Of a stretch of 64,000 nucleotides of DNA, positions 8,179 to 49,211 are shown one piece after another (the first letter of the stretch is position 1; the number at the start of each line of letters is the position of its first letter). Position numbers and translations under genes: made by a program. The stretch is from Pirellulales bacterium (GTDB lineage: Bacteria > Planctomycetota > Planctomycetia > Pirellulales > JADZDJ01). The stretch spans positions 2,083-66,082 of the forward strand of contig DASRSD010000039.1 of the NCBI GenBank assembly GCA_035656635.1, read 5' to 3'. Below the pieces are notes generated by a model, which was not told where the DNA came from, searched no databases, and saw only the letters and a list, made by a program, of their open reading frames with translations.

Positions 8179-9264
8179 TCACAATGCCGTCACGGCACCA
8201 CGAGCGAACCTCCGTTGAACAAACAACATGATAAGCCCTATGCAGGCCAACGCCGCGCTACTCGGCTCCGGCACTGCAGCTGTGGATGCTGCCCCACCCT
8301 GTAACAGCAAATTCAGCAGGGCCTGCAGATCTGTGTTTGTGACTTTACCATTTTGATCGACATCAGCGATCGCCAGGAATTCCGAGTTCGACAAGCCATA
8401 TGCCGCTTGAAACGCGCTCGGATTCGTCAGCGCTTGCAACATCAGTGTGATATCCGCGCTTGATTTCTGACCGTCTCGATTAAAATCTCCACGCATGATA
8501 GCTCGGTAAATGGCGAATGTCGCCTGATCCTGTATTTTTGAATCGACCGTGCCATAAAAGTCGCCATAACTTGGATCGGACAATCCAAAAATGTCGACAA
8601 GCGGTTCCGTTGTGAGCGTGACACCATCTGAAAAATGAACGGTCACCGTGTACGCAAAACCATACGCGCCAAAGGTTGGGCCGGAGCCGATGTAAAGGTC
8701 TTTTTCCAACTCGTGTTGATCGATCAGCGAAACACCAAACGGCGCGGTATTTGATGGCACAGAGGACCAACCGCTTCCGGTTACGTATACATCGCCAGGC
8801 TGAGCGCCGGGATGTGGAAAAGGCGGATAACTGGGATCATCTCCATATATATCAAATATATCTAGCGTCGTACCCTGCGGCGCTGGGCTGGCCATCGCAC
8901 TTCCCAATCCGTTGCCGTTGATGCTTGTGCCGTTGGAAAAATACAGAGGACTCACGACGCTGTAAGTAGCAGTATAGGAGGGCCACCGGCCAGCCGTTGC
9001 CACGAATCCATGGATCGTTGGAAAGTAGAGGCCATTCATGTCAGAACCGACAACATCAAAGGAGGCGTAAAAAAAATCATTTGGAGCCGCCATTGCCTCT
9101 TGCTTGTCAAAATAATCGCCGTCGGACGAATCCGAGGCCGACAGCGATGCTGGCGTAATGTTGTCCGCAGCAAAATTGATCGCCAGATCAAATCCATGTC
9201 CCCATGACGTCGCCGTCGAAACATTGATTATGACGACTAATACAGCCGAAAATAGCCGTTTCAT
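8179..9264 (-). CDS. secreted protein of unknown family with HGF mature N-terminus, C-terminal dockerin-like pair and PEP-CTERM anchor
   Basis: Signal peptide MKRLFSAVLVVIINVSTATSWG followed by HGFDL. C-terminus is GDFNRDGQKSSADI..ADVDQNGKVTNTDLQALLNLLL, then VPEPSS + hydrophobic helix + RR. Paralogous to the next gene. The longest ORF extends to a TTG at 9285. Confidence 0.7.
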   Translation of the reverse strand: MKRLFSAVLVVIINVSTATSWGHGFDLAINFAADNITPASLSASDSSDGDYFDKQEAMAAPNDFFYASFDVVGSDMNGLYFPTIHGFVATAGRWPSYTATYSVVSPLYFSNGTSINGNGLGSAMASPAPQGTTLDIFDIYGDDPSYPPFPHPGAQPGDVYVTGSGWSSVPSNTAPFGVSLIDQHELEKDLYIGSGPTFGAYGFAYTVTVHFSDGVTLTTEPLVDIFGLSDPSYGDFYGTVDSKIQDQATFAIYRAIMRGDFNRDGQKSSADITLMLQALTNPSAFQAAYGLSNSEFLAIADVDQNGKVTNTDLQALLNLLLQGGAASTAAVPEPSSAALACIGLIMLFVQRRFARGAVTAL

Positions 9265-9355
9265 TGTATGCCTCTTAAAATCCAAAGTTTACCGTCAGTG
9301 AGCTGGAGCCCACCGACGGTTCGTTCTTCAATCAAAATTACCGACGTGTGAAAAT

Positions 9356-10336
9356 TCAACACGAAACCAACTCAACTTGCTTCCGACGGTCGGCTCGCAA
9401 CCGAAGTAAACCGATTCCTACGATCCCGAGAAGCGTCAGCATCAGGGCATCCGGCTCTGGTACCGCAGCGTTATAAATCGCCAGCGTTGCTGCATCTTGC
9501 ACCGAAACAGGAGCACTGGCTCCTGGTGGCGATGTTGTGCTCACAAAACTGCCGGAGGCCGACAGCGTCGAATCCGTCAGGGCAAACACGTCCACCATTG
9601 GCGCAGTCGTAAGAATGGGTCCCTGCGTCGTGATGTGATTCAAATCCGAACCGATGAAATAATCGACGGTTAGCGTATAGGCAAATCCATATTCACCATA
9701 GGTCTGCGTCGAACCACTCCCTAGCGTCAAGTCTTTCGCTAACTCGTGCGTATCTGCAAGCGAAATTTGAAAACCAGGCACGGTCCCTGTGCTGCCGCTA
9801 ATCGTAATAATGCCATCCGCGGTGCTAGCTGCTCCGGGATGATTCGTCGAGTTGCTCGCCCCGTTTGGCGCATTTCCCGGAAACCGTTCGATGATATCCA
9901 AATAGGTTCCCGCAGATGCCGAAACGGCCACGCTACCGTCGGAGTATAACAACGGACTGATTACCGTGAAGGTCGCACTAAAATTGAATTCGCCACCGTT
10001 GCCGGACGGACCAGACAATTGCGGTCCTCCGTCGTTCACTGGGTAATAAATGCCCGGCGACGATCGCGGCGCACTTACTAGTGTCCCTTCGGTAAACAAC
10101 GAATCCGGGCCCGTAGTAATCGGAAAGGTGCCGAAAAACACATTGCTGGGGCCGTTCGGCGTGGGTGGCGTTGTTTTCGACGCCGGATAATCCAAGCTCG
10201 GTTCTGCCGATCCAATCGTGAATCCGATTGGTACGCCGCCTGCATCGTTTTCAATCAGCATATACCCATGTGCCCACACTCGGTCGGCTGCCCACGCAAC
10301 CGATAAAGCCAAAACCACAAAAGTGGATAATCTCAT
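9356..10336 (-). CDS. secreted paralogue with HGY mature N-terminus and PEP-CTERM anchor
   Basis: Signal peptide MRLSTFVVLALSVAWAADRVWA followed by HGYML. Shares blocks with the 8179..9264 product: FSATFTVISPLLYSDGS, HPGA, SLADTHELAKDL, YGEYGFAYTLTV, PMVDVFALTD, QDAATLAIY. Ends VPEPDALMLTLLGIVGIGLLRLR. Confidence 0.7.
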   Translation of the reverse strand: MRLSTFVVLALSVAWAADRVWAHGYMLIENDAGGVPIGFTIGSAEPSLDYPASKTTPPTPNGPSNVFFGTFPITTGPDSLFTEGTLVSAPRSSPGIYYPVNDGGPQLSGPSGNGGEFNFSATFTVISPLLYSDGSVAVSASAGTYLDIIERFPGNAPNGASNSTNHPGAASTADGIITISGSTGTVPGFQISLADTHELAKDLTLGSGSTQTYGEYGFAYTLTVDYFIGSDLNHITTQGPILTTAPMVDVFALTDSTLSASGSFVSTTSPPGASAPVSVQDAATLAIYNAAVPEPDALMLTLLGIVGIGLLRLRADRRKQVELVSC

Positions 10337-10411
10337 ATTTTCAAAACTCCAAACTAAGTTTTTATACACCAAGCTTTGTCAAATGATCGCGAAAACTCCG
10401 CAGCGCCAAGC

Positions 10412-11146
10412 TCAGTTGCTCAAAGGCCGCGCAAAGTTTGTCGGATGCCCGTTCAAATAGTTCTGAATGTCTTGCTGGACCCAACTACTGAACATCGGCA
10501 GTGAAACCGTCTCCGCGTGTCCATCAGCGTACAAGTAATTGGCGCAGTCCGAATGCTGCGCGGGATTGACCTCTCCCGTTATCACATTCCAGACTCTGCC
10601 GCGAACAATATCACTTGGTGCGTACCAAGTGGACGTGTGAACATGGTCGTCCGTCGCCGCACGGCCGGTGTCCGCCCCTTCGAACAAAATTATCACCGAG
10701 TGCGAGCTCAGCATTTCATTGATATTGAGCACCGCGTGGCCGTCGGGCGTCGGATACGACACATACTCATTGATCACATAGCTTGTGCCTGGCGAACCGC
10801 TGGCATCGGCCTCCACGCGTTGTGTTCCCAGCGGATCTTCTGGGCAAAGCCGCATGTTATCCACGTTTTCCAAATAAGGCGCCAACGTAAGAATCCATGA
10901 CAGCGTATTGTCAGAGTGATAAGTGTTCGTGGGATCCCCGTGATATGTCCACGGAAAGTGCCCGCGATGAACTCCGACATACTGCATGAGACCAAGACCG
11001 ATTTGGTGCAGGTTGCTTAAACATTGCAGTCGCCTGGCCGCAGCCCGGGCGCGCTGCATCGCCGGCAGCAGCAGCGCAATCAGCAAGCCGACAATGGCTA
11101 TCACGACCAACAATTCGACTAATGTAAAACCATTCCGATAGCGCAT
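10412..11146 (-). CDS. DUF1559 protein with prepilin-type N-terminal methylation motif and H-X9-DG motif
   Basis: [29 protein letters not shown] (type IV pilin-like N-terminus), [16 protein letters not shown], and C-terminal [13 protein letters not shown] (H-X9-DG). This family is expanded in Planctomycetota. Confidence 0.88.
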
Positions 11147-11294: not shown

Positions 11295-11924
11295 TCAAAT
11301 TAGGCCGCTCAACGGAGAATGAAACGCCACAAACAATCGCGGCGGCGGGACATCGGGTGGGAAAGAAATCGACGAGACAGCCGCTGTTGGAAGAGCAACC
11401 CACTCAACAGCATCGTTGGAGAAGGGGAAAGTAAAAATCGGTGGCGGTGGATAGGAAGTGCTCAGACCCTGCCAGTTATCGCCAGCACCGTGACATTTGA
11501 GCGCTTCGATGAGCAGCACGCCTGGCACGCGATTTACTTCATAACATGCGGTACTCACCTTAGGTTGTTGCGGCCAATATGCGGCCCATTCAATGCCTTG
11601 AGCACGGGCAGCCGCCAACGCGTAATCGGGCGGAGTAACATGATTTTCTCGAGCCCATATCAACCGTTCTTCCAATGACTTACAGCAGCAACATCGCCAA
11701 CATTGCTCGGCAGACTGGCAGCCACAGTGATGATTCATGCAAGGAAAGGGTTCCCTGCGAGATTTGCTCGCCGGCGACGTTGGCAGTGGAATGCCTAACG
11801 ACAAAATCGAATAAGAAAGGATAATCGTCCACCGAGAAGCCGCTTGTATCCGGCTGGTTTGCGGACAAAACCAATCACGTTTTCGGAACCGAACCCAGAA
11901 AGTGTGGGCCGAAACGCGTGACAT
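11295..11924 (-). CDS. hypothetical membrane-anchored Cys-rich protein
   Basis: 209-aa ORF. One TM helix (WTIILSYSILSLGIPL) is followed by CMNHHCGCQSAEQCWRCCCC, which is 8 Cys and 2 His within 20 residues. No family recognised. Confidence 0.5.
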   Translation of the reverse strand: MSRVSAHTFWVRFRKRDWFCPQTSRIQAASRWTIILSYSILSLGIPLPTSPASKSRREPFPCMNHHCGCQSAEQCWRCCCCKSLEERLIWARENHVTPPDYALAAARAQGIEWAAYWPQQPKVSTACYEVNRVPGVLLIEALKCHGAGDNWQGLSTSYPPPPIFTFPFSNDAVEWVALPTAAVSSISFPPDVPPPRLFVAFHSPLSGLI

Positions 11925-12099
11925 GTCTAAAAAACCTCTCGTCGTGCAAAATACGACAATGCGTCATAAAATACAATCCCCGTGCTTCATCACCGAATTG
12001 GCTGGAACATGCGAACACTCGCCGTGGACGAATTGCGAGGTCTCAGCTAACCTAATGCATAATGGCATTATGCCCTGTAAAAATCTCAAAGGAGATTCA

Positions 12100-12519
12100 A
12101 TGCGTAGCGACCTTTCTCGCCGCGAGTTTAACAAATTGACTACCGCTGCACTGAGCGGCATGGCGGTTGGCACATGGGCAGGTTGTTCGTCAAATACTAG
12201 CACCGCAAAGGCCGCGGCCGACATCCATTCCTGCCGTGGCCTAAACGATTGCAAAGGCCAAGGGGCTGATGGAAAGAACACCTGTGCCGGAGAGGGTACT
12301 TGCTCCACCGCCAAAGCACACGATTGCGGCCATCAGAATGACTGCAAACACCAGGGTGGTTGTGGAGAGACGCCCGGCGAAAACGATTGTAAGCAAAAAG
12401 GAAATTGCTCCGTTCCCATGCAGGGTGATATGTGGCAAAAGGCCCGCACTCGATTTGAACAACGGATGAATCAACGAGGCAAAGTAATTGGCACCGCGCC
12501 GCCGACTAAAGAAGCCTGA
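12100..12519 (+). CDS. Tat-signal lipoprotein with Cys-repeat (bufferin/DUF2282-like) region
   Basis: ATG 12100 has AGGAG 5 nt upstream. Twin-arginine motif LSRREFNKL, lipobox-like WAGC, then HSCRGLNDCKGQGADGKNTCAGEGTC..HDCGHQNDCKHQGGCGE..ENDCKQKGNC. The longest ORF (11902) overlaps the divergent gene. Confidence 0.6.
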   Translation: MRSDLSRREFNKLTTAALSGMAVGTWAGCSSNTSTAKAAADIHSCRGLNDCKGQGADGKNTCAGEGTCSTAKAHDCGHQNDCKHQGGCGETPGENDCKQKGNCSVPMQGDMWQKARTRFEQRMNQRGKVIGTAPPTKEA

Positions 12520-12675: not shown

Positions 12676-12981
12676 TCAAAATCCAAAACGAATGCCGAAA
12701 TGCCGTCCGGTGAGTGAAACAAAACCCGTTGGCGGAGCAACTACAATAGGAGGTGCACTGACAACCGGCAGAGTAGCAATCACCGTGGGTGCAGCGACCA
12801 CCTGTGGGTAGTAAACAACTTCGGGTCGAACAACTCTCACAGGCGGATAGCAATGGTCGACCACCACATGATGGTGATGATCCCAACCGACAACTTGTAC
12901 AGGCGTTCCGGCTTGGGCTGCACTTCCTCCGGCAACTGTCAAGCTACCAACTGCGGCAGCGATCAATAGAAAGCGTCTCAT
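12676..12981 (-). CDS. small secreted His-rich, Val/Pro-rich protein
   Basis: Signal peptide MRRFLLIAAAVGSLTVAGGSAAQA, then GWDHHHHVVVDHCYPP and a Val/Pro-rich tail. No family recognised. Confidence 0.5.
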   Translation of the reverse strand: MRRFLLIAAAVGSLTVAGGSAAQAGTPVQVVGWDHHHHVVVDHCYPPVRVVRPEVVYYPQVVAAPTVIATLPVVSAPPIVVAPPTGFVSLTGRHFGIRFGF

Positions 12982-20499: not shown

Positions 20500-21669
20500 T
20501 TATTTTGCAGTCTCACCTTGGGGAAGCACGTCGGCGGAAATCAGGATTTGATAAGAGCCCGCGCTCTCGTCGGGCATACTTTCCACTCCGGTCAGGTTCA
20601 CGATATCTCCGCGTGCGATACGGATTGTCGACTGTCCGAGGATCGCGATATTGGTTGGCGCCGGCAGTTCCGACCGTTCAGCCGCCTTCAATCCAGGTCC
20701 GACCGCGCCATCTTTTACTTGCGCAACTGCTGTCGATTTTTCCGCATCTAAACTCATAATGATGACGTTGCCGGAACTGACACGTGCCTGCACTTGAATG
20801 GTCGTGCCAATACTCTCATGGGTGGTGGTCGATGTTCGGTTCGAATTTACGGTGGTTGGGTTGGCAATGCCAGGCCTGCGTTCTCCTTGTTCTGCAAACG
20901 CAGGCTGATTGTCCGAGCACGTCAATTGGAAGTGATTTGTAACGGCCGCTTTTCCTTCTCTCTCCAACTGAAGTAATTGGTTAAGGACTGCGGTGCGCCG
21001 ACCTGCTTGTAAAAACTCCGTTTCCGGCTGCAATTTGACGAACCAGACATCGACGGCAATTGAAGGGTAAGGGCTATCTATTTCCGCGATCAGGTTCGAA
21101 ATTTCTTTGAGCGTCTCCGGCGGCGCAGAAACGAGCAAGCTGTTGGAAGTAGGTTCAGCAACCACCAAAGCTCCCGTGCCATCGCCGGGGGGATACGCTT
21201 TCGTGAGCGTGCCGGCGATATTGGAGCAGAACACGTTTTGAAGCCGAAAGAGATGTCTTTGCTGTTGGTTCTCGCTCCGTTGAGCAGCCGACGTTTGCGG
21301 CTTCTCGAGCGATTGGGCCTCTGCTCGGTCGATCATTTTGGGAGCATGATTATCGGGCCACACTGCCAACGCCAAAAATACCGCCGCCGCTAAGCCGAGG
21401 ACTGATGCAATTGTGCAGCGCATGAGAATTCTCCTTTTCCGGGTTTGGGAAATTTTGCTGAACTGCGTCGCCAGGCCGGCGGCATCGCCGAATTCTTCCA
21501 AGGCAATTTGCACAGCCCGCTCGTGCGTAAAACCGCTACCCATCAGTTCCGCCAGGCGCGATTCGAAATGATCGCGCAATTCCTCGCCAATGGCTTCCCG
21601 CTGCTTGGAATTGAGCCGCAGCAAACGGCCGATCAGCGTCAAGTAATTTTCAAATTCGCGGTCGGACAT
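20500..21669 (-). CDS. membrane protein: DUF1700/HAAS-like head, one TM helix, periplasmic secretin-N-like domain
   Basis: MSDREFENYLTLIGRLLRLNSKQREAIGEELRDHFESRLAELM..EEFGDAAGLATQF. TM helix IASVLGLAAAVFLALAV. Periplasmic LFRLQNVFCSNIAGTLTKAY..ALVVAEPTSNSLLVSAPPETLKEISNLIAEID resembles GspD-type secretin N domains. Confidence 0.7.
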   Translation of the reverse strand: MSDREFENYLTLIGRLLRLNSKQREAIGEELRDHFESRLAELMGSGFTHERAVQIALEEFGDAAGLATQFSKISQTRKRRILMRCTIASVLGLAAAVFLALAVWPDNHAPKMIDRAEAQSLEKPQTSAAQRSENQQQRHLFRLQNVFCSNIAGTLTKAYPPGDGTGALVVAEPTSNSLLVSAPPETLKEISNLIAEIDSPYPSIAVDVWFVKLQPETEFLQAGRRTAVLNQLLQLEREGKAAVTNHFQLTCSDNQPAFAEQGERRPGIANPTTVNSNRTSTTTHESIGTTIQVQARVSSGNVIIMSLDAEKSTAVAQVKDGAVGPGLKAAERSELPAPTNIAILGQSTIRIARGDIVNLTGVESMPDESAGSYQILISADVLPQGETAK

Positions 21670-27916: not shown

Positions 27917-29329
27917 CTACTGCACCACTGCATTGCCGCGGCTGAAATCGAAGAAGGTGCTAAACGGCAGCACGGAATACAGGCCACGGGTGAAGTATAA
28001 ATTCACCAAATCGTCGACGATTAAAATCGGCGATTTCGGCACCATGACAATGTCGCTGTCGTCGAGCCAAATTTCTCCGCACGGGCAAGGTTGACGATTG
28101 CATAACATGGTGCTTTGCATGTGAACCACCGTGGCCATCAGCCGCCAATCGTCGCCGCGGCGAAAAATGGCAATCTCGCGCAAATTCGCGCCGATTTTCC
28201 AACTGCCCGCCATGCTTATGGCCTGCATTAACGTGGTGGGGCCTTCCATGCTGTAACGGCCGGGCGTGTTCACTTCGCCAAACACGAATACATAACGCGG
28301 CGCCCGTTGCGTGAGAATGGGCGTAACTTCCATTCCTTGAATGCCCAATTGTTCTTTGTAGCGCAAATCGATTTCCAACTTCAGTTCGTCCAGCGTTAAC
28401 CCTTGCGCCGGAATGTTGTTCAAGCCGGGCAGGTCAATCGTGCCTTGTGGCGTAACCTTGGCGGACCGTTCTTGGCCCCCCTGCCCTGCCCGAGCGTCAA
28501 CCGTGGCCCGCAAATCGTCTAACTTGGTGTTCACCTTGATCGGCGTAACGGTAATCGCGGGCTGCTTGTAATACTTTGAATACAAGTCGTCGAGCTTGGT
28601 ACGCAGCTCTTGCACAGTCATGGTGGCGGCTCGCACTTCTCCCAGCAAACGGAGCGTGACGGTGCCATCGGGCTGAATGACCAGCTCGCGATTCAAGTTG
28701 GAATCGGTGAACGATTCGACCTGAACCACATCGCCCACGTTTAACCGGTACGGATCGGTTTCTACGTCACGGGTAATGCGATAAACGCACTCCAACACGT
28801 CGTCCACACGGAGGCGGTACACCGGCACGTGCGGCTCACGCCAGTGGCCGACATATTCTCCTTGGGCATAGGCTTGCCAATCGATGGGCCCCATCGCCTT
28901 CCAGCCCTTTGTCTTGCAGCAGCAACCGCACGGCCCGCACAAAGCGCAATCGACACCCATAATCGGGCACGGCGCCGCCGGACCCAGCGCTTGGCAAAGC
29001 TGAATGGCGGTCGCGGTGTGAGGCGTTTGGGGCTGGCGTAAATCGATCGTGTACTGCTCGGTCCACGTTGAAGGATCGATCTTTAGCGGCTGCTCAGACT
29101 CCTGCCTGCTCAGCACTGGCAAATTGGATACCGCCGCATTCGATACCGCCAAGTTCCCTGTTGACGAGCATGATGCAGAATGAATTGGGCGACGATCCGC
29201 GCCATCGCCAATGGGGCGCAGCAACCAGGCGCATGCGCACAGCAAGGCGGCTCCGGCCACGAAGCGCCGCCGCTGGATTGCAGTTTGTGATCTGTTTTCG
29301 ATCGTCGTTGTCATCAATTTCATAGACAT
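27917..29329 (-). CDS. polysaccharide export protein (Wza-like: Poly_export + SLBB domains) with N-terminal Cys cluster
   Basis: YRLNVGDVVQVESFTDSNLNRELVIQPDGTVTLRLLGEVRAATMTVQELRTKL..YKQPAITVTP (Poly_export). VFVFGEVNTPGRYSMEGPTTLMQAISMAGS (SLBB). Preceded by CPIMGVDCALCGPCGCCCK. Confidence 0.8.
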   Translation of the reverse strand: MSMKLMTTTIENRSQTAIQRRRFVAGAALLCACAWLLRPIGDGADRRPIHSASCSSTGNLAVSNAAVSNLPVLSRQESEQPLKIDPSTWTEQYTIDLRQPQTPHTATAIQLCQALGPAAPCPIMGVDCALCGPCGCCCKTKGWKAMGPIDWQAYAQGEYVGHWREPHVPVYRLRVDDVLECVYRITRDVETDPYRLNVGDVVQVESFTDSNLNRELVIQPDGTVTLRLLGEVRAATMTVQELRTKLDDLYSKYYKQPAITVTPIKVNTKLDDLRATVDARAGQGGQERSAKVTPQGTIDLPGLNNIPAQGLTLDELKLEIDLRYKEQLGIQGMEVTPILTQRAPRYVFVFGEVNTPGRYSMEGPTTLMQAISMAGSWKIGANLREIAIFRRGDDWRLMATVVHMQSTMLCNRQPCPCGEIWLDDSDIVMVPKSPILIVDDLVNLYFTRGLYSVLPFSTFFDFSRGNAVVQ

Positions 29330-34227: not shown

Positions 34228-36072
34228 CTACTTCCTCCGGATTTGTACCACGAGGAGCACTGCACCGGCCAGCCCCAAAAGCAGCCCAGCGGCGGGTTCG
34301 GGAACCGCCGCAGCAGTGCTGCCTTGGCCATTGAGCAAATTGTTGATTAGGGCTTGGACATCGGCGTTGGTATCTTTGCCGTCGCCATTGACATCCAGGA
34401 TGGTGTGAATGTCGCTGGCCGATAGCGAAGAATGCAACGCAGTATAGGCGCTGGGACTAGTCAAAGCTTGCTCCAAAGCCACGATATCTGCTGAATCGAC
34501 ATGGCCATCTCGGTTGATGTCACCGGGGAGCGGATTGACATCAATCAGCCCGACGACGCTGGTGTTGAAGGTTGTATAGGCGGCATACGTGCCTTGCATC
34601 CAGATCAGCGCTTCCTGGTCGTTGCCCGTGATCAACTGGGGACGGATGTTGTCGGACGAAGTGTTTGTTAATTGGCTGAAGCTCCAGGTGCTGCCGTTAT
34701 CGGAGGACGTGCCCTGGAAAATTTGCCAGTGCTGGTGGCCATCGGGGCCCAGCAGCGCGGCATTCGTGGTGGGATTTACATCGGCGGAAAAATAAATTTT
34801 GTTCGGATTCAGCGGATCGACCGCCAGCAGGCCTGCGTATTGATTTTGACTATTGTACAGCGGCAAGCCGGCGTAACCGACGCGCGAAACTTGCCACGCG
34901 CCGCCAACCAGATGGGCGAAATCGTATTCCAAATCGTTGCCGTATGCTCCGTTAAGATTGCGAACGACCACAAAGCCGAGGTACGGGTTGCCGCTGGAAT
35001 CTAACTGCATGGAGCTGGCCCAACCTACATAGCCAGCGCCGAAAGAACTGGTGCCGCTTAAGTTGAAGCCGTCTGCGGCCACGCCATTCGCCTTGGCAAT
35101 TTGTGTGAAATCGGTCGGCAGATAGCTTTTGCCGGTGCCGCTGGCAAGATCGCCGGCGTTGCCGGTACTGGGCGGATTCGCCCCGCCTGTGGTTGGCGCC
35201 GTGCCGGTGCTTAAGCCGCCCAACATGGCGCCGGTGGAAGTAAATATGTTCGCCGAGCCATTAGCGGCAAATTGCATGTAGCCCACGTACAGGCTGTTGA
35301 GATAGTTCTGGGGGCTATCTTCGGTCGTGGCAAACCAGACAGTGTTCGATCCGTTGGAGGCGTATTTGACGTACGGCCTGCCATTGCCACCGGTCAGCGC
35401 TTCGTTGTTGGGATTCCGCCAGTACATCCAATGCCCGCCGTATGTGAACGTAGGCGTAGCATTGCCCAGGCTTGTATACGTGGAATAGTTTGGGTCATAC
35501 CCAATGGCGCGAGAGAAGCTAACCACCTCGTTGGGCACGCTTAAGTAGAACGGGTTGCCGTAGGTGTTTCCGTTGCCGTCATTCGTGGTGTTGACCGTGG
35601 AGGTTTGCTCGGACCCCCACATGGTGCCTTCGCCGGCCGTAGTGCTGACGCGCCACTGGACGAGGTTGTTGGCTCCATGCGTTTGATATTCGACCAGAAT
35701 TCGCCCATCGGGCAGAACGGCAAAGGCCGGATCCGCATGATCGTCCTGATTGAACGCGGCGTGCAGCAATGTTTCGGTGTTGGCGTGGGTGCTGAGATTG
35801 TAATCGGTAACATCGACATCTCCCGCCGCAGAGGTGCCACCATTCCCATTATTGATCGTGCCATTGGCGCCGGCGATGGAGCCGATGATTAATTGATTGT
35901 TCGTAATAATGGCGCGCGGATCGGAAAACCAAGACCAGCCCCCATCAGCGTTGAAAGTGACCGGCGTGCCGCTAAAGGCGGCAAAGCATGCGGCGCGGGG
36001 AAGAATTATCGCGAAAACGAATGCGACGGACAAATTTTTGAACAGCTTGCTGCGGACCGCGGAAGCTTTCAT
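34228..36072 (-). CDS. secreted BNR/sialidase-like beta-propeller protein with dockerin-like pair and PEP-CTERM anchor
   Basis: Signal peptide. GGWSWFSDPRAI start typical of BNR-4-type propellers. Asp-box SSDNGSTWS. C-terminus GDINRDGHVDSADI..LDVNGDGKDTNADVQALINNLL + VPEPAAGLLLGLAGAVLLVVQIRRK. Confidence 0.65.
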   Translation of the reverse strand: MKASAVRSKLFKNLSVAFVFAIILPRAACFAAFSGTPVTFNADGGWSWFSDPRAIITNNQLIIGSIAGANGTINNGNGGTSAAGDVDVTDYNLSTHANTETLLHAAFNQDDHADPAFAVLPDGRILVEYQTHGANNLVQWRVSTTAGEGTMWGSEQTSTVNTTNDGNGNTYGNPFYLSVPNEVVSFSRAIGYDPNYSTYTSLGNATPTFTYGGHWMYWRNPNNEALTGGNGRPYVKYASNGSNTVWFATTEDSPQNYLNSLYVGYMQFAANGSANIFTSTGAMLGGLSTGTAPTTGGANPPSTGNAGDLASGTGKSYLPTDFTQIAKANGVAADGFNLSGTSSFGAGYVGWASSMQLDSSGNPYLGFVVVRNLNGAYGNDLEYDFAHLVGGAWQVSRVGYAGLPLYNSQNQYAGLLAVDPLNPNKIYFSADVNPTTNAALLGPDGHQHWQIFQGTSSDNGSTWSFSQLTNTSSDNIRPQLITGNDQEALIWMQGTYAAYTTFNTSVVGLIDVNPLPGDINRDGHVDSADIVALEQALTSPSAYTALHSSLSASDIHTILDVNGDGKDTNADVQALINNLLNGQGSTAAAVPEPAAGLLLGLAGAVLLVVQIRRK

Positions 36073-36111: not shown

Positions 36112-39100
36112 TCAATCGTTTTTTCCAAGTTCAACTACTGCACGGCGCTTGCGACGGTAAAACCGCCCGCCCACTGCCAAACCGCCCAGGGCCAAAAGCA
36201 GGAAGCTGGCCGGCTCGGGCACCGGTGCATTGCTGCCATGGCCGGCAAGCAAATAATTGATGAGCGCCTGCTCGTCAATATTATTAACTTTGCCGTCATG
36301 GTTGACATCGGCAATGGCCAGTAACTCGGCGTTGGTTAACGCCGGATGCGCCGCGAGGTAACCTGCGGTGTTGATAAGTTCACTCATCAGAGCGATTAGG
36401 TCCCGGCTGTCGACATGGGAATCCAAATTGACGTCGCCGAGCAGCGTCGCAAAGCCAAGGGGCTGGACTTCGCCGTCACCTAGAATTTGAGCGCCCGGAG
36501 CGAATCCGGTGAAATCGATTTGGCTGAGCTGCGTGGAGTTCAACCCGACGGAACTCTTACTGACGTACAAGGCATCGTTTCCGAAGGTCCAGTTGGCAAT
36601 TGCCAAGGAGCTGCCGCTCCAGGAAACGGCGCTGCTGTCGTCGAATGTCAAAATGCTGCTGCCATTGCTCAAGTCGATGGTCGGCGTGCCGCTGGCCAGG
36701 TTCAACGTTCCCGTAGTGCCTGTGCCTGGGGTTGCGGTGTTGCCGCTGAACGTGAGGTTATGGCCGCCGGTGGAGAGCGTGCCGGTGTCGTTTAACGTTA
36801 ATCCGCCGCGAACACTGCTGGCCGTACCGATGGTCCAGGTGCCGCTGCCGCTTTTGACCAAGTTCATCATGCCCGCTCCGGCCGCGGAATCTGCAATTCC
36901 ACCGGCCAAAGTTCCGTTGCCTGCACCCGATAGTTTTACGTTGCGGAGCGTCGTGAGAGCGCTAGGAATGGCAATTTGGCTTTGAATGGTTAGCGAGCCG
37001 GCATCGGAATCGAGATTATAGTCGCTGCCTCCGGAAAGTAGTGTAATGGCGCCAGACAAAATGTTGTTACCTGCCACATTTTGAATGTGGAACACATTGA
37101 TTCCATTTCCTTGTCGTGCACCAAGCGACATCGGCTTAGTTACGGTAATTCCGGCCGACGTTGGATTTAGCAACAAAGTACCTACCAAATTCGTATTATT
37201 CGTGCTGCCGCCAATCGTGAAAGTGCCCGTCGTGGGCGAACCCAACGCACCGCCCGTGGTAATTTCTAAATTACCAGAGCCATTGCCAATGGTCATGTTG
37301 CCAGTATAGGAAGGGCTGTCGACATTCAAAACGGTAGTGCCCAGCGAACCTTGCGCGTTGCCCGTGCCCGCGGTGGTGATGGTAAGTGGCCCCGCGCCAG
37401 TCAATGGGCTGTTCACGTTAATAGTCGTGCCGGCATTGGGGGCGAATTGGATGTTGCTGCCGGCTACCGTCACGATGCCGCCCGTCGCGCCCAAATTCAC
37501 GTCGCCGCTAATCGAGAGCGTGCCGCCGCCGGTGACCGACAGCGTGGTATTGGTTCCGGAAAGTGCGGTGCTGTTGGTTAAGGCCAAAGTTGCTCCGCCG
37601 TCCAAGCCCACGAGTGCGTTGGAGCCCACGGTGACCGTGCCGCTGACAGTGGTGGTCGTGGCCGCTCCCACGCGAATGGCGCCATCGTTATTTGCGCCAC
37701 TGGCGCCGGTGCCCGTGCCGTTGATGGTAATCGGCTGGCTGGGAGCGTGGTTACTGCCGGTGTCGAAGTACAATTCGCCGCCATTTTGAACGATGTTGTT
37801 GCTGCCGCTCAGCGGATTATTCGTATTGGCCGGACGCACAATGCCCGATTGTACGGTCAAGGTGCCGCCGAATCCGCCTAAATCTGCATTCTGAGCCGTT
37901 ACGTTATTCGTTCCAGCAAATATTAAATTACCGTTGCCACTCACCGAAGTCGGCGCGAAGGTTGTCGAATCGCTTCGGCTGTAAATCAAATTGCCAGGGC
38001 TGTTGATTTGCAGGGACCCTGTGCCCAGCGATCCGGACGCCGTTCCGCCGCCAATATTCAGCGTGCCGGAATTGACAGTGGTGGTGCCGGAGTAATCGTT
38101 GTTGGTTTCCAGTATGAGCGTTCCGGTACTTGTGCCAGTACCTACGCTCAGCGTGGCAGCGCCGCTGATTTTTCCAATTCCCGAAATGGTGTAATTATTG
38201 GTCGAAGCGTTATAAGTTACCGAACCGGGGGTTACGGTTGTGTTCAAAGCAATTGCCGTTTGCAATTGTCCACCCGGCACAGGATGCGTGTTGTTATCGA
38301 CGAAGTGGACATTGTCTCCTTGGAAATAAGTCTGGTTGTTTAGGGAGCTTGTCGTATCGAACCAATTGGCATGGGTCGTGTCCCAATTCGAATCCGAAGT
38401 TGAATTCCAATCCAAATCGTGGCCTGAGCCAAACGTCACCGTGGTAACCAGCTCTCTGCCGGTTGGACCGCCAGCGATGAGGCTGATCGGGCTAAAACCT
38501 GTTCGCCCGCCATTGCTGGAGGTGATTTGCAAGTTGGCAAGATTTGCAATCGAGGTTTCCGTGCTGGGCAGGGTGAATAGAGTATATTGGAAGGTAGCCG
38601 GAGAAGTGGAGTTCGGATTTTGCAGCTCCATGTCAAGCGGCGTGATGCTTGCGCCAATGGTTAAGCCGGCGCCGGCGACGTTGATTAAATCTTGTGTCGA
38701 CGAGTTGCTTTGATCGACATAATAACGCACGGTGCCGCCGTTGAGCGTTAAACCATTGTCGAAAGTTAAAGTTCCACCATTGCCGGAAACCACGTTTCCA
38801 ACTAGCACGTGGGTGCCGCCACTAATAATTGCTCCCGCGACATTATGATTGAGCACGCCATTGATGCTGCCCGTGCCATTCAGCACGGCGCTGGACGCCA
38901 CGCTAATGTTTCCCGTTGAACCGGCGGCTCCTAGAGTTCCGTTTACCTGCAGCATGCCTCCGCCGATGGTCGTATTGCCGTGATACCCCATGGTGCCATT
39001 GACGATAATGGCGCCCGGATTATTCGGCTTGGAAAAACTGGCGTGATTGGAGCTCTCCGTTCCGCTGACCGTGGCGTTGCCGTTCAGCGTGAGACTGGCG

Positions 39101-42100
39101 CCGGCAGTGACGACATCAATGGTCGCTGTTTTACCATCGTTCATGGTGAAATTGCGGTCTGTGTTGCGGGAGGTGGCGCCCGTGAGTTGCAGTGTGCCGC
39201 CATTGAAAACTAAATTGGTGGCGGTGCTGTCCGAGGCGCCGATGCTGCTGGAAGAGCCGCCGTTTTCAATATCGTCGACAACGAGGGTGCCGCTGGTGAG
39301 CGTGGTGCTTCCGTGGTAGGTAAACCCGCCGCCCGTGCCAACCAGAAATTGCTGAATGCCTGCCGGATCGCCGTTCAACACAACGCTTAGTGGGTGGGTC
39401 GAGTCACTATCGGTAATCGACGCTGTGCCCACCGTGGCGGTATTGGTGGCGAAGGAGGCATTCGTGGTAGCCGTGGGCGCCAAGGTTAGTATTGAGGCAC
39501 TCGTTGTCGAGGAGTTGGTGATTGTTGAAGTATTTGCAGTACTATTGGATTGGCTGGTAACAATGCTCGCTAAGGTCTGGTTAAAGCCGTTCAAATCCAG
39601 CGTCGTCAGTGTGCCATTGCCGCTTACACCCAGGGCGGCAACCGCATTGGGGGCAATACCGTTATTTGCACCAATACTGGTGACACCGGTGACTCCTAGC
39701 GTCGTGTCATTCCCGGTAATACTGATTTGCGGATAACTTCCGCCACCGGAAAGTTGCACATTCCCGCCACGAACCACGAGTGCGGCAACTCCGGAGCCGG
39801 TGGTAATTGGCCCGGTAAAACTCAACAACCCTGCGCCCGGTCCGACAATGTCACCGCCATTGCCCGTGGCGGCGTTAATCGTAATCGAGCCAGAAAATGT
39901 AGCAGTGCCCGATAACGAGATAGCATCGGTCGTCAAGGCGCCTAAGCCGGTGCCGGGCGAAACCGTGTTGATGACAATGTTGGGTGTCAGCGTGACGCCG
40001 TCGTGCAATTGCAACCTGGCAACCGGCGAACCGGTGTTGGGGCCATTCACGGTAATTGGCCCGGTGCCCAATCCGCTGTTGTTGAGCACGTTGATGACGC
40101 CGGAATTTACCGTGGTTCCACCGCCGTAAGTATTCACACTCGTGGTATCGAAGGTTACGGTATTGCCCCCCGCGGCAATGGTGAGCGCAATATCACGGTT
40201 TGTGCCCTTGGTGATTTGGCCCAAAATATCGGTGGCAGCACTCATTGCGACCGACAAGGAGGTTACGCCTGGAGTCGCTGAATTATCGGTAACCACAGCG
40301 CCCGCGATGGGCAAACTAAAGTTGGTGACGGAAGCGTTATTGCCGTTCAAGTTCAACGTGGCGTTCAAATTCGCGTTGGTGTTGCCGACGGTTAAAGCCG
40401 CGCCGCTGGGTAGGGCGCTGGCGTTATTGAGATTCACGGTACCGCTATTCACCGCGAGGCTGGCATAGGAGTTGGCTCCCGACAGTGTAATGGCGCCGGA
40501 GCCGTTCATGAGCACATTGCCGCTGCTGAGAATGTTACTGGCGACGTTTAAAGCGCTATCGCTGCGATTAAATATCAAATTCGCGCCGGCACCCAGCGTG
40601 ACATTGCCGGTACCTAACGTGCCGCTCGTCCCGCCAGCGCCAATGGTGACGGCGTCGCCGCCAATCGCGAGTGTGGCGCCCGCGCCAACGGTGGTGGTGG
40701 TGTAACTATTGTTGCCGGTCAAAATGACCACGCCGGTGCCAGAAACGCTCACCCCTTGACCCGTGCTGGTGCTGATGGCTCCGCTGATGGTCAAACTGGT
40801 GTTCGTGGCAGTGGAAATCTGCGCACTGGAGTTAAGCGCCATCGGCACTTCAATGGTGTGCGTGCCATTGAGAACGTTGATCGAAGCGCCCGCCGAAGCA
40901 TTGTCAACGGTCAGAGTTGAGCCGGTGTGATTGGCGGTGGTGCCAATCAAATCGAACGGTACGCCGTTGTTAAATACCAAACCGCCGACCGTCTTTCCGC
41001 CATTGAGCTGCACCACTCCGTCGCCGCCGATCAAATCGGTGCTGAAGTTGGCGGTGGCGCCTTGGGAATTGGGAATGCTGCTGCTTACCCAGTTGGCGGA
41101 ATTCGTCCACAGCTCATTGCCCGATCCGTTGGTCCAGGAGCCGCTGGTGCTGGTGCCGATGGTCAATTGGATTTCATGCAGCGAGGTATTGTTGACAAAG
41201 TTGTACGACTTCCCGGACTGGGCGTTCGCAATGGACAGATTGCTCAGCAGGCCGGTAAAGCCGGTCGTGTAATTAAACAAATCGTAGGTGCCGTTGGTGG
41301 CAAACGGAGTGGGCGTGGCAGTGCCCGCGGTGCCGGCCAGAATCAAACTGAGCGCCCCGCCGTTGATCGCCAAACCATTCGCGTTGGAAACGGTAACAAT
41401 ATCGTGCCCGGTCGAAAGCGCGGAACCGGTGTTAAAATCGAAACTGATTAACGAGCCATTCGCAAACGTCAGCGAAGTCGGCGCGAATGTAGTGCTAACG
41501 CCATTACTCACTAGAGGGTCGCCCGGCGATAAAGTACCACCGGAGTTAATGGTTAGCGCCCCAACGCTGCCCGTGCCGCCAATCGTACCACTGACGCTGA
41601 CGGCCGAGCTGGCCGATAAGCTGCCATTTACCAGCAGGGTGCCGGCACTAACCGTGGTTGCGCCGGTATAGGTGTGCGTACCGGTGAAAACCAAGGTGCC
41701 GAGACCAACCTTCGTGAGGCTGGCATTATTCGCCGCGGCTTCTGTGCCCGACATGGTCAAGCGCGTTGCAGCGGTGCTGACGCCGAAAATTGCCGTCAGA
41801 GGAGTGCCGATCGTGGAGTTGATCGTGAAATTTCTGTTGGTGCTGGTTGTGGCGCCGGTGTAGTTGAGTTCGGTATTGTTGCCGTTAAACACCAAATTAC
41901 TGGCCGCATTGGTGGAAGCGCCGATGCTGCTGGGATTTCCGCCGTCGGCGAGAAAACTGACGGTCAACGTGCCACTGTTGATGGTAGTCGGAACAGTGTA
42001 GGTACTTGCTGCACTGGTAAGCACGACGCTGCCGGTCGTGGTGCCGTTGCCAATCGCCAAATTGCCGCTGCTGGATTGGCTGGTGATGGCGCCGGCCAGC

Positions 42101-44868: not shown

Positions 44869-44901
44869 ATTGCACCGTATGGAAATAGAGTGTGCCGATG
44901 G

Positions 44902-44929
44902 CATACGCTGGCTGGCAAACATAGGTTCC
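44902..44929 (-). promoter_or_regulatory. ECF-type promoter candidate upstream of the giant gene
   Basis: The minus strand reads GGAACC (44929-44924), a 16-nt spacer, then CGTATG (44907-44902). This fits the general ECF pattern (-35 GGAAC, -10 CGT). It lies 34 nt upstream of ATG 44868 and inside the longest-ORF extension. Confidence 0.3.
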
Positions 44930-48110: not shown

Positions 48111-49211
48111 ATGCGATTTTGGATCACGCTGATCGTTTGCTCGCTGTTAAGCTGGCTTGGCGTCTTCGGAACTGCCATGGGCGTGGCCCAATCTATTTCG
48201 CTGACCGATGTGCAACGGAAACGATTAGCGGAAATCGTGCACGGCGATAAGGATGCCGGGGCGATGTTTGCCGCGTTCAAGCGTCAGGCAGACCAGGCAT
48301 TGAACGACCAGCCTAAGCCCATCGACAAAATTCAGACAGAAGGAAAATTGCCCAAGGATCCCGTGAAATTGAAAACCGAGGAAAGCCTGGCCGACATGGG
48401 GAAGCTGGAGGCACTCGCCTTCGCCTACGCCGTAACCGCCGAGCCAAAATATGCGGACAAATCGCGCGAGTTCCTTCTAGTGTGGGCGGGAACCAACCAC
48501 TCCAAAGGGGACCCGATTGACGACACGAACTTGGAACCGTTGCTGTTCAATTACGATTTAACTCGCAGCACGTTTTCCGCCGACGAGCGCCAAGCCGTGG
48601 ATGCGTATTTGCGAGGCGTCGCCGCTGTGGAACTGGCCACGGCGAAAAGCAAGGACAATAATCATTTCAACAATTGGCATAGCCACCGCTTAAAAATTGT
48701 GGGCCTGATCGCCTTTTTGTTGCCCGACCAGGCGCTGATCGACACGACGGTAAGAATGTACAAAGAGCAAATCGAACACAACATTGAACCGGACGGCAGC
48801 ACGTATGATTTTCACGAGCGCGACGCCCTGCATTATCATCTTTATGATCTGGCTCCCTTGCTGACGTTGGCCATCGCAGCCAAAGCCAACGGCGTCGATT
48901 TGTATTCCTATCAATCGCCTAAGGGAGGCAGCCTTGGCAAAACAATCGAGTTTCTTCTGCCTTATGCGCAAGGCACGAAAACGCACGCCGAATTTGTAAA
49001 CTCAAAAGTCAGTTTCGATCGCAAACGAGCGGAAGCCGGCGCAAAAGAATACCAGTCGGGATCTGCCTTTCAGCCGCATTCCGCACTGACGGTGCTGGGA
49101 TTAGCCGAGTTTTTTGACCCCAGCTTGCTGGATTTGGTGCACACGCTATCGCACGGCAATTCGCCAAAATATCCAACTTGGCAAATCGTTTTAAACGAAG
49201 TCCGGAAATAG
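48111..49211 (+). CDS. alginate-lyase-family (PL5/heparinase-N-like alpha/alpha toroid) protein, secreted
   Basis: Signal peptide. ALAFAYAVT..KYADK, NNHFNNWHSHRL and DGSTYDFHERDALHYHLY fit the Alginate_lyase family pattern. Substrate unknown. Confidence 0.55.
   Translation: MRFWITLIVCSLLSWLGVFGTAMGVAQSISLTDVQRKRLAEIVHGDKDAGAMFAAFKRQADQALNDQPKPIDKIQTEGKLPKDPVKLKTEESLADMGKLEALAFAYAVTAEPKYADKSREFLLVWAGTNHSKGDPIDDTNLEPLLFNYDLTRSTFSADERQAVDAYLRGVAAVELATAKSKDNNHFNNWHSHRLKIVGLIAFLLPDQALIDTTVRMYKEQIEHNIEPDGSTYDFHERDALHYHLYDLAPLLTLAIAAKANGVDLYSYQSPKGGSLGKTIEFLLPYAQGTKTHAEFVNSKVSFDRKRAEAGAKEYQSGSAFQPHSALTVLGLAEFFDPSLLDLVHTLSHGNSPKYPTWQIVLNEVRK

Follow-up and report, generated by a model that had tools for sequence, protein, structure and literature searches.

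Two tandem PEP-CTERM-anchored paralogues with a predicted N-terminal histidine define a rare planctomycete protein family and a conserved four-gene cassette

The DNA analyzed in this work (64,000 nucleotides of the Pirellulales bacterium contig DASRSD010000039.1; hereafter, the window) harbors two adjacent minus-strand genes, here called A and B, whose products are predicted to be exported and to begin, once the signal peptide is removed, with His-Gly-Phe and His-Gly-Tyr, respectively. This raises the question of whether such a histidine takes part in a histidine brace, in which copper is held by the amino group and the pi-nitrogen of an N-terminal His and by the tau-nitrogen of a further His (PMC10952591). 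The initial annotation had described A and B as candidate copper proteins of this kind, akin to the AA10/fusolin-type lytic polysaccharide monooxygenases (LPMOs). The reading that we favor, tentatively and at somewhat less than an even chance, is that A and B would capture and hand over a metal, probably copper, at the cell surface, within an envelope module for metal handling, and would not be polysaccharide oxidases. What stands firm is the family, which is new, rare, and confidently folded, and the conservation of the four-gene cassette; the metal function is put forward as a hypothesis.

Both open reading frames (ORFs) exist at the positions initially assigned to them, and their paralogy holds (BLASTP, 31% identity across 306 columns, E 2e-22). 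All the blocks listed as shared by the two proteins, i.e., [FY][ST]AT[FY].V.SPL..S.G, HPGA, SL.D.HEL.KDL, [FY]G.YGFAYT.TV, P.VD.F.L.D, and QD.AT.AIY, were found in both and recur in the family alignments. From the reading of the DNA, A starts at the ATG at 9264, with AAGAGG 6 nt upstream, and B at the ATG at 10336. Protein A is identical to P0094 from a Pirellulales metagenome-assembled genome, whose NCBI name is merely "dockerin type I domain-containing protein". The JGI call for B (P0001, 301 aa) begins at Met38, within the mature protein (region 10223-10336), so the signal peptide and the His-Gly-Tyr are absent from that database entry; the family alignment backs the longer form as the correct one. 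Counted from the corrected starts, both signal peptides are 22 residues long and end as first annotated (TSWG directly before HGFDL in A, RVWA directly before HGYML in B).

The C-terminus of both proteins consists of VPEP, a hydrophobic helix, and a basic tail, in agreement with the PEP-CTERM anchors initially proposed. The Pfam PEP-CTERM scores (PF07589/TIGR02595) of the window proteins, 17.1 and 18.3 bits, lie just below the cut-off of 20.7; those of homologues exceed it (23.4, 24.7, 26.1, and 26.2 bits), and VPEP is kept in at least 90% of the family. No exosortase was seen among the approximately 30 window ORFs scanned. Protein A also contains a dockerin type I domain overlooked by the initial annotation (PF00404, residues 266-328 of the listed ORF, 36.4 bits vs. 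a cut-off of 22.9, E 5.9e-9), with paired Ca-binding loops; protein B has none.

A search with B among 5.8 billion clustered proteins retrieved 38 relatives, none of them named; an exhaustive phmmer search with the A core among 1.84 billion representatives gave 51 matches, and a profile search of pre-filtered candidates from the 5.8-billion-protein set gave 23, all from the same family. Scanning 185,579 species genomes revealed seven loci, each in a planctomycete bin with the label Pirellulales, Planctomycetaceae, or Planctomycetia, and every family record with an organism label comes from a planctomycete genome bin. As initially stated, the family is unnamed, and its core domains have no Pfam or NCBIfam match at E ≤ 1. 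A and B belong to a rare, hitherto undescribed, and apparently planctomycete-restricted family of exported proteins (hereafter, the His1 family).

The conservation of single residues was counted in a 77-sequence alignment, over the members covering each position. The first His and the following Gly of the predicted mature protein are invariant (61/61 each), and the third residue is Phe in 56 members, Ile in three, and Tyr in two. Behind a hydrophobic leader, this His is residue 22-28 (mostly 23) in 49 of the 59 database members with an N-terminus, the other calls beginning further upstream or being truncated; the N-terminal His initially predicted for A and B is therefore predicted family-wide, usually straight behind a 22-residue signal peptide. 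Of the two further histidines that had been described as conserved between the paralogues, the one in the HEL block (His162 of mature A) stands, being present in 75 of 76 members, with a 190-aa fragment as the sole exception. It is followed by Glu163 (74/76), Lys166 (66/76), and an almost invariant GEYGF block. The other does not: in the HPGA block, Pro (67/74), Gly (61/74), and Ala (55/74) are common, and the His is found in just 45 of 73 members, the remaining 28 carrying Tyr (11), Phe (4), Glu, Leu, Asn, or other residues. Since it is not conserved, this His is unlikely to be an essential ligand, and it was rejected as a third one. According to the alignment, the family carries two conserved histidines, not three.

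The head domain always lies at the extreme N-terminus, including in multidomain members of 480-825 aa; the longer members append PATR beta-helix repeats and, in some cases, a dockerin, plus the PEP-CTERM anchor. Such a strictly N-terminal position is what would be expected of a domain needing its own alpha-amino group. Moreover, a distant relative (L008:9650-10414), sharing 17% identity and detected by hhalign with a probability of 99% (E 4.7e-18), begins with HGF directly after AFG and retains the aligned second His; its tandem partner begins with HGL after VHA. The persistence of His-Gly-Phe and of the second His at this level of identity suggests that the superfamily is wider than sequence searches reveal. 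The two genes form a very divergent tandem PEP-CTERM pair (254 and 258 aa; L008:9650-11311, also in L009) located behind a cysteine-rich membrane protein gene and a pseudopilin gene of the kinds described below. A 589-aa "tandem fusion" (P0009, L002:9917-11752) was rejected as a real internal copy: it is probably an artefact of assembly or gene calling, because the second copy still has a signal peptide of its own, located behind the PEP-CTERM tail of the first, and because the adjoining pseudopilin gene of that bin is broken into two frames.

As for the cleavage of the leader, a cut before the His satisfies the -3/-1 rule in 59 of 59 members, with Gly, Ala, or Ser at -1 and mostly Ala at -3. 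The rule is equally satisfied, again in 59 of 59, by a cut after His-Gly, which would remove the His; as both cuts fit, the rule was rejected as a way to fix the register. The c-region of the leader is unusually conserved, with Ala-Trp-Gly/Ala before the His and Trp at -2 in 20 of 35 (window positions 9199-9207 and 10271-10279); selection for cleavage at one precise point may be the reason. Signal-peptide c-regions are normally not invariant, and AA10 LPMOs show the same formal ambiguity, yet they are cut before the His. Since His-Gly is invariant, unlike the usually variable c-regions, and is kept at 17% identity, it would belong to the mature protein. This argues that the mature proteins begin with a free N-terminal His, and it is on this basis that we infer the cleavage site.

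AlphaFold2 was given the core of mature A and the 77-sequence alignment. The model is confident (predicted local distance difference test, pLDDT, 92.2; predicted template modelling score, pTM, 0.90), also at residues 1-10 (mean pLDDT 96), and comprises sixteen short strands, all-beta, and one C-terminal helix. His1 and His162 each lie two residues ahead of a strand (3-9 and 164-169), and their modelled positions are compatible with a shared end of the sandwich. Probing the PDB (350,542 chains) with this model by Foldseek retrieved nothing at E ≤ 1e-3 (best E 2e-3, best template modelling score 0.27), and no LPMO, CopC, YcnI, or PCuAC was present among the best 50 of 1341 PDB matches; nor did BFVD (predicted viral protein structures) yield a significant match. 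The head domain is thus confidently predicted to be a beta-sandwich without a recognizable solved relative, i.e., a new predicted fold.

The only Foldseek matches, all weak, are generic immunoglobulin (Ig)-like pilins, adhesins, and PapD-like domains among those listed (CsuA/B, CooA, FimH, PapD-like, and MSCRAMM domains; probabilities ≤ 0.89, template modelling scores ≤ 0.27). They might point to a metal-free Ig-like adhesin or structural subunit, exported or organized by the pseudopilin operon, in which His-Gly would be kept for folding or processing, or removed with the signal peptide by the formally allowed cut after it. A pilin-like gene does occur in the operon, and dockerin, PATR, and PEP-CTERM are typical of adhesin-like surface proteins. 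We consider this explanation unlikely, in that His-Gly is found in all 61 members and is kept, along with the second His, in the relative with 17% identity, a degree of conservation not normal for leader c-regions; furthermore, the domain is never internal, and its obligate partner, described below, has the look of a metal-binding protein.

The membership of A and B in known families was checked at the sequence level as well. An hmmscan search against Pfam at E ≤ 1 gave Dockerin_1, PEP-CTERM, and a weak EF-hand for A and PEP-CTERM alone for B; in NCBIfam, the head domain had no match, the only ones being with anchor-proximal PEP-CTERM families and in the dockerin/EF-hand region. No Pfam or NCBIfam match at E ≤ 1 was obtained with LPMO_10 (PF03067), GH61/AA9 (PF03443), CopC (PF04234), YcnI (DUF1775), or PCuAC, and the 77-sequence family profile gave 0 matches at E ≤ 10 among all PDB sequences. 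Since the tests of sequence and fold both fail, A and B are not members of a known LPMO family, and the kinship with AA10/fusolin or other LPMOs that had been suggested is not borne out. Membership in the CopC and YcnI families was rejected on the same profile, PDB-sequence, and Foldseek negatives, and so was a link to DUF4198, which likewise starts with an N-terminal His (hhalign probability 0.2%).

In principle, A and B could nevertheless be true LPMO-type oxidative enzymes, with a new family and fold, attacking, e.g., an algal or bacterial glycan or chitin at the surface. The mature start His-Gly-Phe/Tyr is the same as that of AA10 proteins (CBP21, fusolin), and in both cases a Sec signal peptide directly precedes His-Gly-aromatic, a (here predicted) all-beta sandwich head is N-terminal in modular proteins, and a second invariant His follows later in the chain. 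The conserved Glu163 and the aromatics of the GEYGFAF block would suit such an enzyme, the layout with the catalytic head first, followed by stalk and anchor, recalls that of modular LPMOs, and the same window encodes polysaccharide-active surface proteins on a dockerin/PEP-CTERM scaffold, plus an alginate lyase. Unlike AA10, however, the His1 family has no match to an LPMO profile at E ≤ 1, to the PDB by profile, or by Foldseek, and the stretch between the second His and the next conserved aromatic block is just 17 residues long. No member has a carbohydrate-binding module (CBM), no glycoside hydrolase, CBM, or other carbohydrate-active enzyme (CAZyme) is conserved around the genes in the compared loci, and the conserved partner is a Cys/His-rich membrane protein. 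Among bacteria, moreover, the brace derivatives (CopC, PmoF1, and YcnI) serve for the most part in copper transport, and their genes are grouped with others of that function (PMC10952591). An oxidative enzyme of the LPMO type is, in our opinion, decidedly unlikely.

The comparison with these copper proteins reveals both likenesses and differences. CopC/PcoC (with CopD), YcnI (with YcnJ), and PmoF1/PCuAC are, as A and B are predicted to be, small exported beta-sandwiches with an N-terminal His proposed to bind Cu and a membrane partner encoded adjacent. The His1 family differs from them in having no sequence or fold match with them, in its partner (a single-pass Cys-cluster protein and a pseudopilin, not a CopD-type permease), and in its PEP-CTERM anchor and two tandem paralogues. 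YcnI is also membrane-tethered through its C-terminus. The fungal X325/Bim1 proteins display a brace head at the cell surface through an anchor at their C-terminus (glycosylphosphatidylinositol, GPI, in Bim1, as against PEP-CTERM for the putative brace head here), and their role is tied to copper acquisition, not catalysis (PMC10952591); these proteins are eukaryotic and have an LPMO-type fold, and that of the His1 family is different.

With planctomycete and verrucomicrobial PEP-CTERM/exosortase proteins, A shares the display module (dockerin, VPEP, transmembrane stretch, and basic tail). The head of A and B is a distinct, unnamed family, and none of the NCBI motif-named PEP-CTERM families matches it, their matches being confined to the anchor-proximal C-terminal part. 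The window encodes two further surface proteins with the display module of protein A, namely, dockerin and VPEP anchor: in the product of 34228-36072 (-), the module carries a BNR_4 head, and in that of 36112-44922 (-), which is 2936 aa long, it is joined to PATR. An alginate lyase is encoded near them (48111-49211, +). In this organism, the combination of a dockerin with PEP-CTERM behind it seems to serve as a general-purpose anchor.

The organization of the genes was compared by tblastn, ORF clustering across loci, further locus look-ups, and ten metagenome contigs. Four genes occur in one orientation in the order cysTM (a Cys/His-rich single-pass membrane protein), DUF1559 pseudopilin, short paralogue (B type), and long paralogue (A type, with dockerin or PATR), and this order recurs in the planctomycete genome and metagenome loci covering it. 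The upstream neighbors and the plausible operon of the initial annotation were thus recovered; in the window, the gaps among the four genes are approximately 91, 75, and 148 nt, and no convincing intergenic terminator was found (Table 1). Most loci carry two tandem His1 genes. Among the 14 loci reaching far enough upstream, cysTM is present in all and the pseudopilin in 12 (it is absent from L001 and L011). Besides the cassette genes, nothing is conserved around the cassette among the compared loci, and in the window it is flanked by housekeeping genes (ECF sigma factor, MnmA, FloA, and a thiamine pyrophosphate enzyme).

The second gene of the cassette is a bona fide member of the DUF1559/H-X9-DG family (PF07596, 59.6 bits; N_methyl, PF07963, 33.4 bits); the H-X9-DG motif is readable in the sequence despite a weak TIGR04294 match. 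It is, however, a specific orthologue travelling with cysTM and the His1 proteins, 49-67% identical between loci, a degree of conservation above that of A and B.

With 29 matches, the cysTM family is of about the same small size as the His1 family; two of its longer contigs equal contigs of His1-family members in length and are probably identical to them. After the transmembrane helix, its members share the invariant motif PC-x4-CGC-x5-CW-x2-CCC...WA, followed in most homologues by a stretch rich in His/Asp/Glu and CC, e.g., HEDHDH...HHHSD...CC or HEHDDHDH. The basic residues before the helix suggest, according to the positive-inside rule, that the Cys domain faces the periplasm. On the basis of these motifs, cysTM looks like a metal-binding protein.

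The cysTM-pseudopilin pair also occurs with other partners. In L010:8001-12511 and L014:368-4820, a paralogous pair precedes PepSY_TM and DUF4198 genes in place of the His1 genes; the DUF4198 protein there seems to begin with His after its leader (HDTWV following PRA) and ends with CPCCE. In L012, the pair precedes a HEAT-repeat protein, and in L013, cysTM stands directly before other PEP-CTERM proteins. A resistance-nodulation-division (RND) pump by cysTM in L012 gives no evidence on metals, because it is of the generic multidrug type and not specifically CusA/CzcA.

PepSY_TM and DUF4198 are families from metal-uptake contexts, namely, those of iron reductases and of Ni/Co uptake, and in this respect the related modules speak for a role of the cassette in metal handling. 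Their occurrence behind cysTM and the pseudopilin, together with the His/Asp/Glu-rich stretches of the cysTM homologues, which resemble Zn/Ni-binding loops, allows another explanation, with the same architecture and site and with Ni, Co, Zn, or Fe as the metal in place of copper, the cassette being an uptake or sensing module. Chelation by an N-terminal amine and a His also occurs for Ni(II). Against this, Cu(I) is the metal to which a Cys-rich partner is suited; here and in the closer relative L022, the cassette adjoins the divergent gene of a Cys-rich lipoprotein with a twin-arginine translocation (Tat) signal and a weak match to bufferins, which are Cu metallophores; and an N-terminal His with one distal His is overwhelmingly a Cu site in known proteins (PMC10952591). 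A metal other than copper is the least probable of the alternatives weighed here.

The surface capture and hand-over of copper, the reading that we prefer, would work as follows. The Sec signal peptide would be cut just ahead of the invariant His-Gly-Phe/Tyr, so that the beta-sandwich head would start with a free N-terminal His, and the exosortase-type PEP-CTERM anchor would fix the C-terminus to the cell envelope; in paralogues of the long type, head and anchor are set apart by a dockerin or by a PATR beta-helix stalk. The amino group and imidazole of His1 and the His of the HEL block would together bind a metal, most likely copper, in a site of the histidine-brace type, with Glu163 and Asp202 as candidates for an Asp/Glu closing the coordination sphere of this putative site. 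Partnered by the co-encoded cysTM and usually by the dedicated DUF1559 pseudopilin, A and B would capture or present the metal at the surface, with a function akin to that of CopC/CopD, YcnI/YcnJ, or the GPI-anchored Bim1/Ctr1 and not to that of a polysaccharide-cleaving LPMO. Given the N-terminal His, another invariant His further along the chain, and a domain confined to the N-terminus, a site of the histidine-brace type is the most economical hypothesis. Furthermore, the obligatory Cys/His-rich membrane partner and the lack of CBMs and of conserved CAZymes imply that the analogy with trafficking fits better than that with LPMOs. That a metal is bound, which metal it is, and in which direction it would be transferred we infer from these patterns.

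Besides the allowed cut after His-Gly and the Ig-like Foldseek matches, several data speak against this reading. No known copper gene (CopA/B/D, CusF, Sco, PCuAC, or multicopper oxidase) is conserved near the cassette in the compared loci, and none was seen among the window ORFs scanned. The cysTM protein is single-pass and no transporter, and a Cys cluster exposed to the periplasm may serve for nothing more than disulfide bonding; the protein as a whole is modelled poorly by AlphaFold (pLDDT 67.8), and Foldseek retrieved no structural match for it. DUF1559 pseudopilins, in turn, are very numerous in planctomycetes and the papers found that mention DUF1559 do not appear to assign a function to any such protein. 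The bolder form of the copper hypothesis, according to which the proteins would be a structurally new family of brace copper proteins, with two obligate surface paralogues forming, together with cysTM and the pseudopilin, a trans-envelope system for copper acquisition or copper-dependent oxidation, appears rather doubtful to us.

Table 1. Position of the cassette genes, of their sequence features, and of the adjoining genes in the window (a slash marks a cleavage site)
Feature	Position	Strand	Description
Gene A	8179..9264	-	361-aa precursor; signal peptide, predicted N-terminal-His domain, dockerin, PEP-CTERM anchor; long paralogue type
PEP-CTERM-type anchor of A	8209..8277	-	AVPEPSSAALACIGLIMLFVQRR
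Dockerin type I domain of A	8302..8490	-	two EF-hand-like Ca loops
Core domain of A	8494..9198	-	235 aa; AlphaFold2 model
Second invariant His of A	8713..8715	-	His162 of mature protein, HELEKD block
HPGA block of A	8803..8814	-	
His1 codon of mature A	9196..9198	-	predicted mature start HGFDL
Signal peptide of A	9199..9264	-	MKRLFSAVLVVIINVSTATSWG, 22 aa; -3/-1 residues S and G; then HGFDL
Gene B	9356..10336	-	326-aa precursor; signal peptide, predicted N-terminal-His domain, PEP-CTERM anchor; short paralogue type
PEP-CTERM-type anchor of B	9395..9466	-	AVPEPDALMLTLLGIVGIGLLRLR
Second invariant His of B	9746..9748	-	His209 of listed ORF, HELAKD block
His1 codon of mature B	10268..10270	-	predicted mature start HGYML
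Signal peptide of B	10271..10336	-	MRLSTFVVLALSVAWAADRVWA, 22 aa; then HGYML
DUF1559 pseudopilin	10412..11146	-	prepilin leader MRYRNG/FTLVELL, C-terminal H-X9-DG
cysTM, Cys/His-rich single-pass membrane protein	11295..11924	-	first gene of the cassette; transmembrane helix, Cys motif, C-terminal PPPR
Conserved Cys-cluster domain of cysTM	11601..11750	-	PFPCMNHHCGCQSAEQCWRCCCCKSLEERLIWARENHVTPP...; small helical domain, pLDDT ~90
Tat-signal lipoprotein	11902-12519	+	divergent from the cassette; likely start near MRSDLSRREF; SRREF...WAG/C
Small secreted protein	12676-12981	-	WDHHHHVVVDHC motif, Pro/Val-rich tail

Two further Cys/His-rich proteins are encoded beside cysTM. The Tat-signal lipoprotein contains nine Cys in repeated C-x-G-x-NDCK-x-x-G-like units and shows a weak similarity to the BufA2 family of bufferin copper metallophores (E 0.019, 15 bits vs. 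a cut-off of 60); a MNIO/DUF692 partner did not turn up among the ORFs scanned. It is kept at the same position in L022 (66% identity) and not in L001-L007. The small secreted protein weakly matches the NCBIfam "HHHH-motif protein" (E 0.0086) and is 74% identical in L022, where it adjoins the same cassette. At 10-20 kb from the cassette, the window also encodes a secretin-domain protein (20500-21669, -) and a Wza-like polysaccharide export protein (27917-29329, -).

In the literature, we found no paper describing the family of A and B or joining the histidine brace with PEP-CTERM, and the only paper found naming both the histidine brace and planctomycetes concerns copper import in Bacillus subtilis. 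To our knowledge, no histidine-brace protein has been described so far in this phylum. More than once, a new brace family has led to unfamiliar enzymology (AA9 to AA17) or to new insight into copper trafficking (CopC, YcnI, and Bim1). A copper site made up of the N-terminal His and the HEL His would mean that evolution arrived at the brace independently, on a new fold. Even without a brace, there remain a fold that is new and confidently predicted and an operon that is clearly conserved. The cassette ties together a PEP-CTERM family, a Cys-cluster membrane protein, and one specific DUF1559 pseudopilin, and is, therefore, a small and testable way into the biology of the planctomycete envelope; should the new copper system prove true, it would provide the first functional handle on the huge expansion of DUF1559 pseudopilins in planctomycetes.

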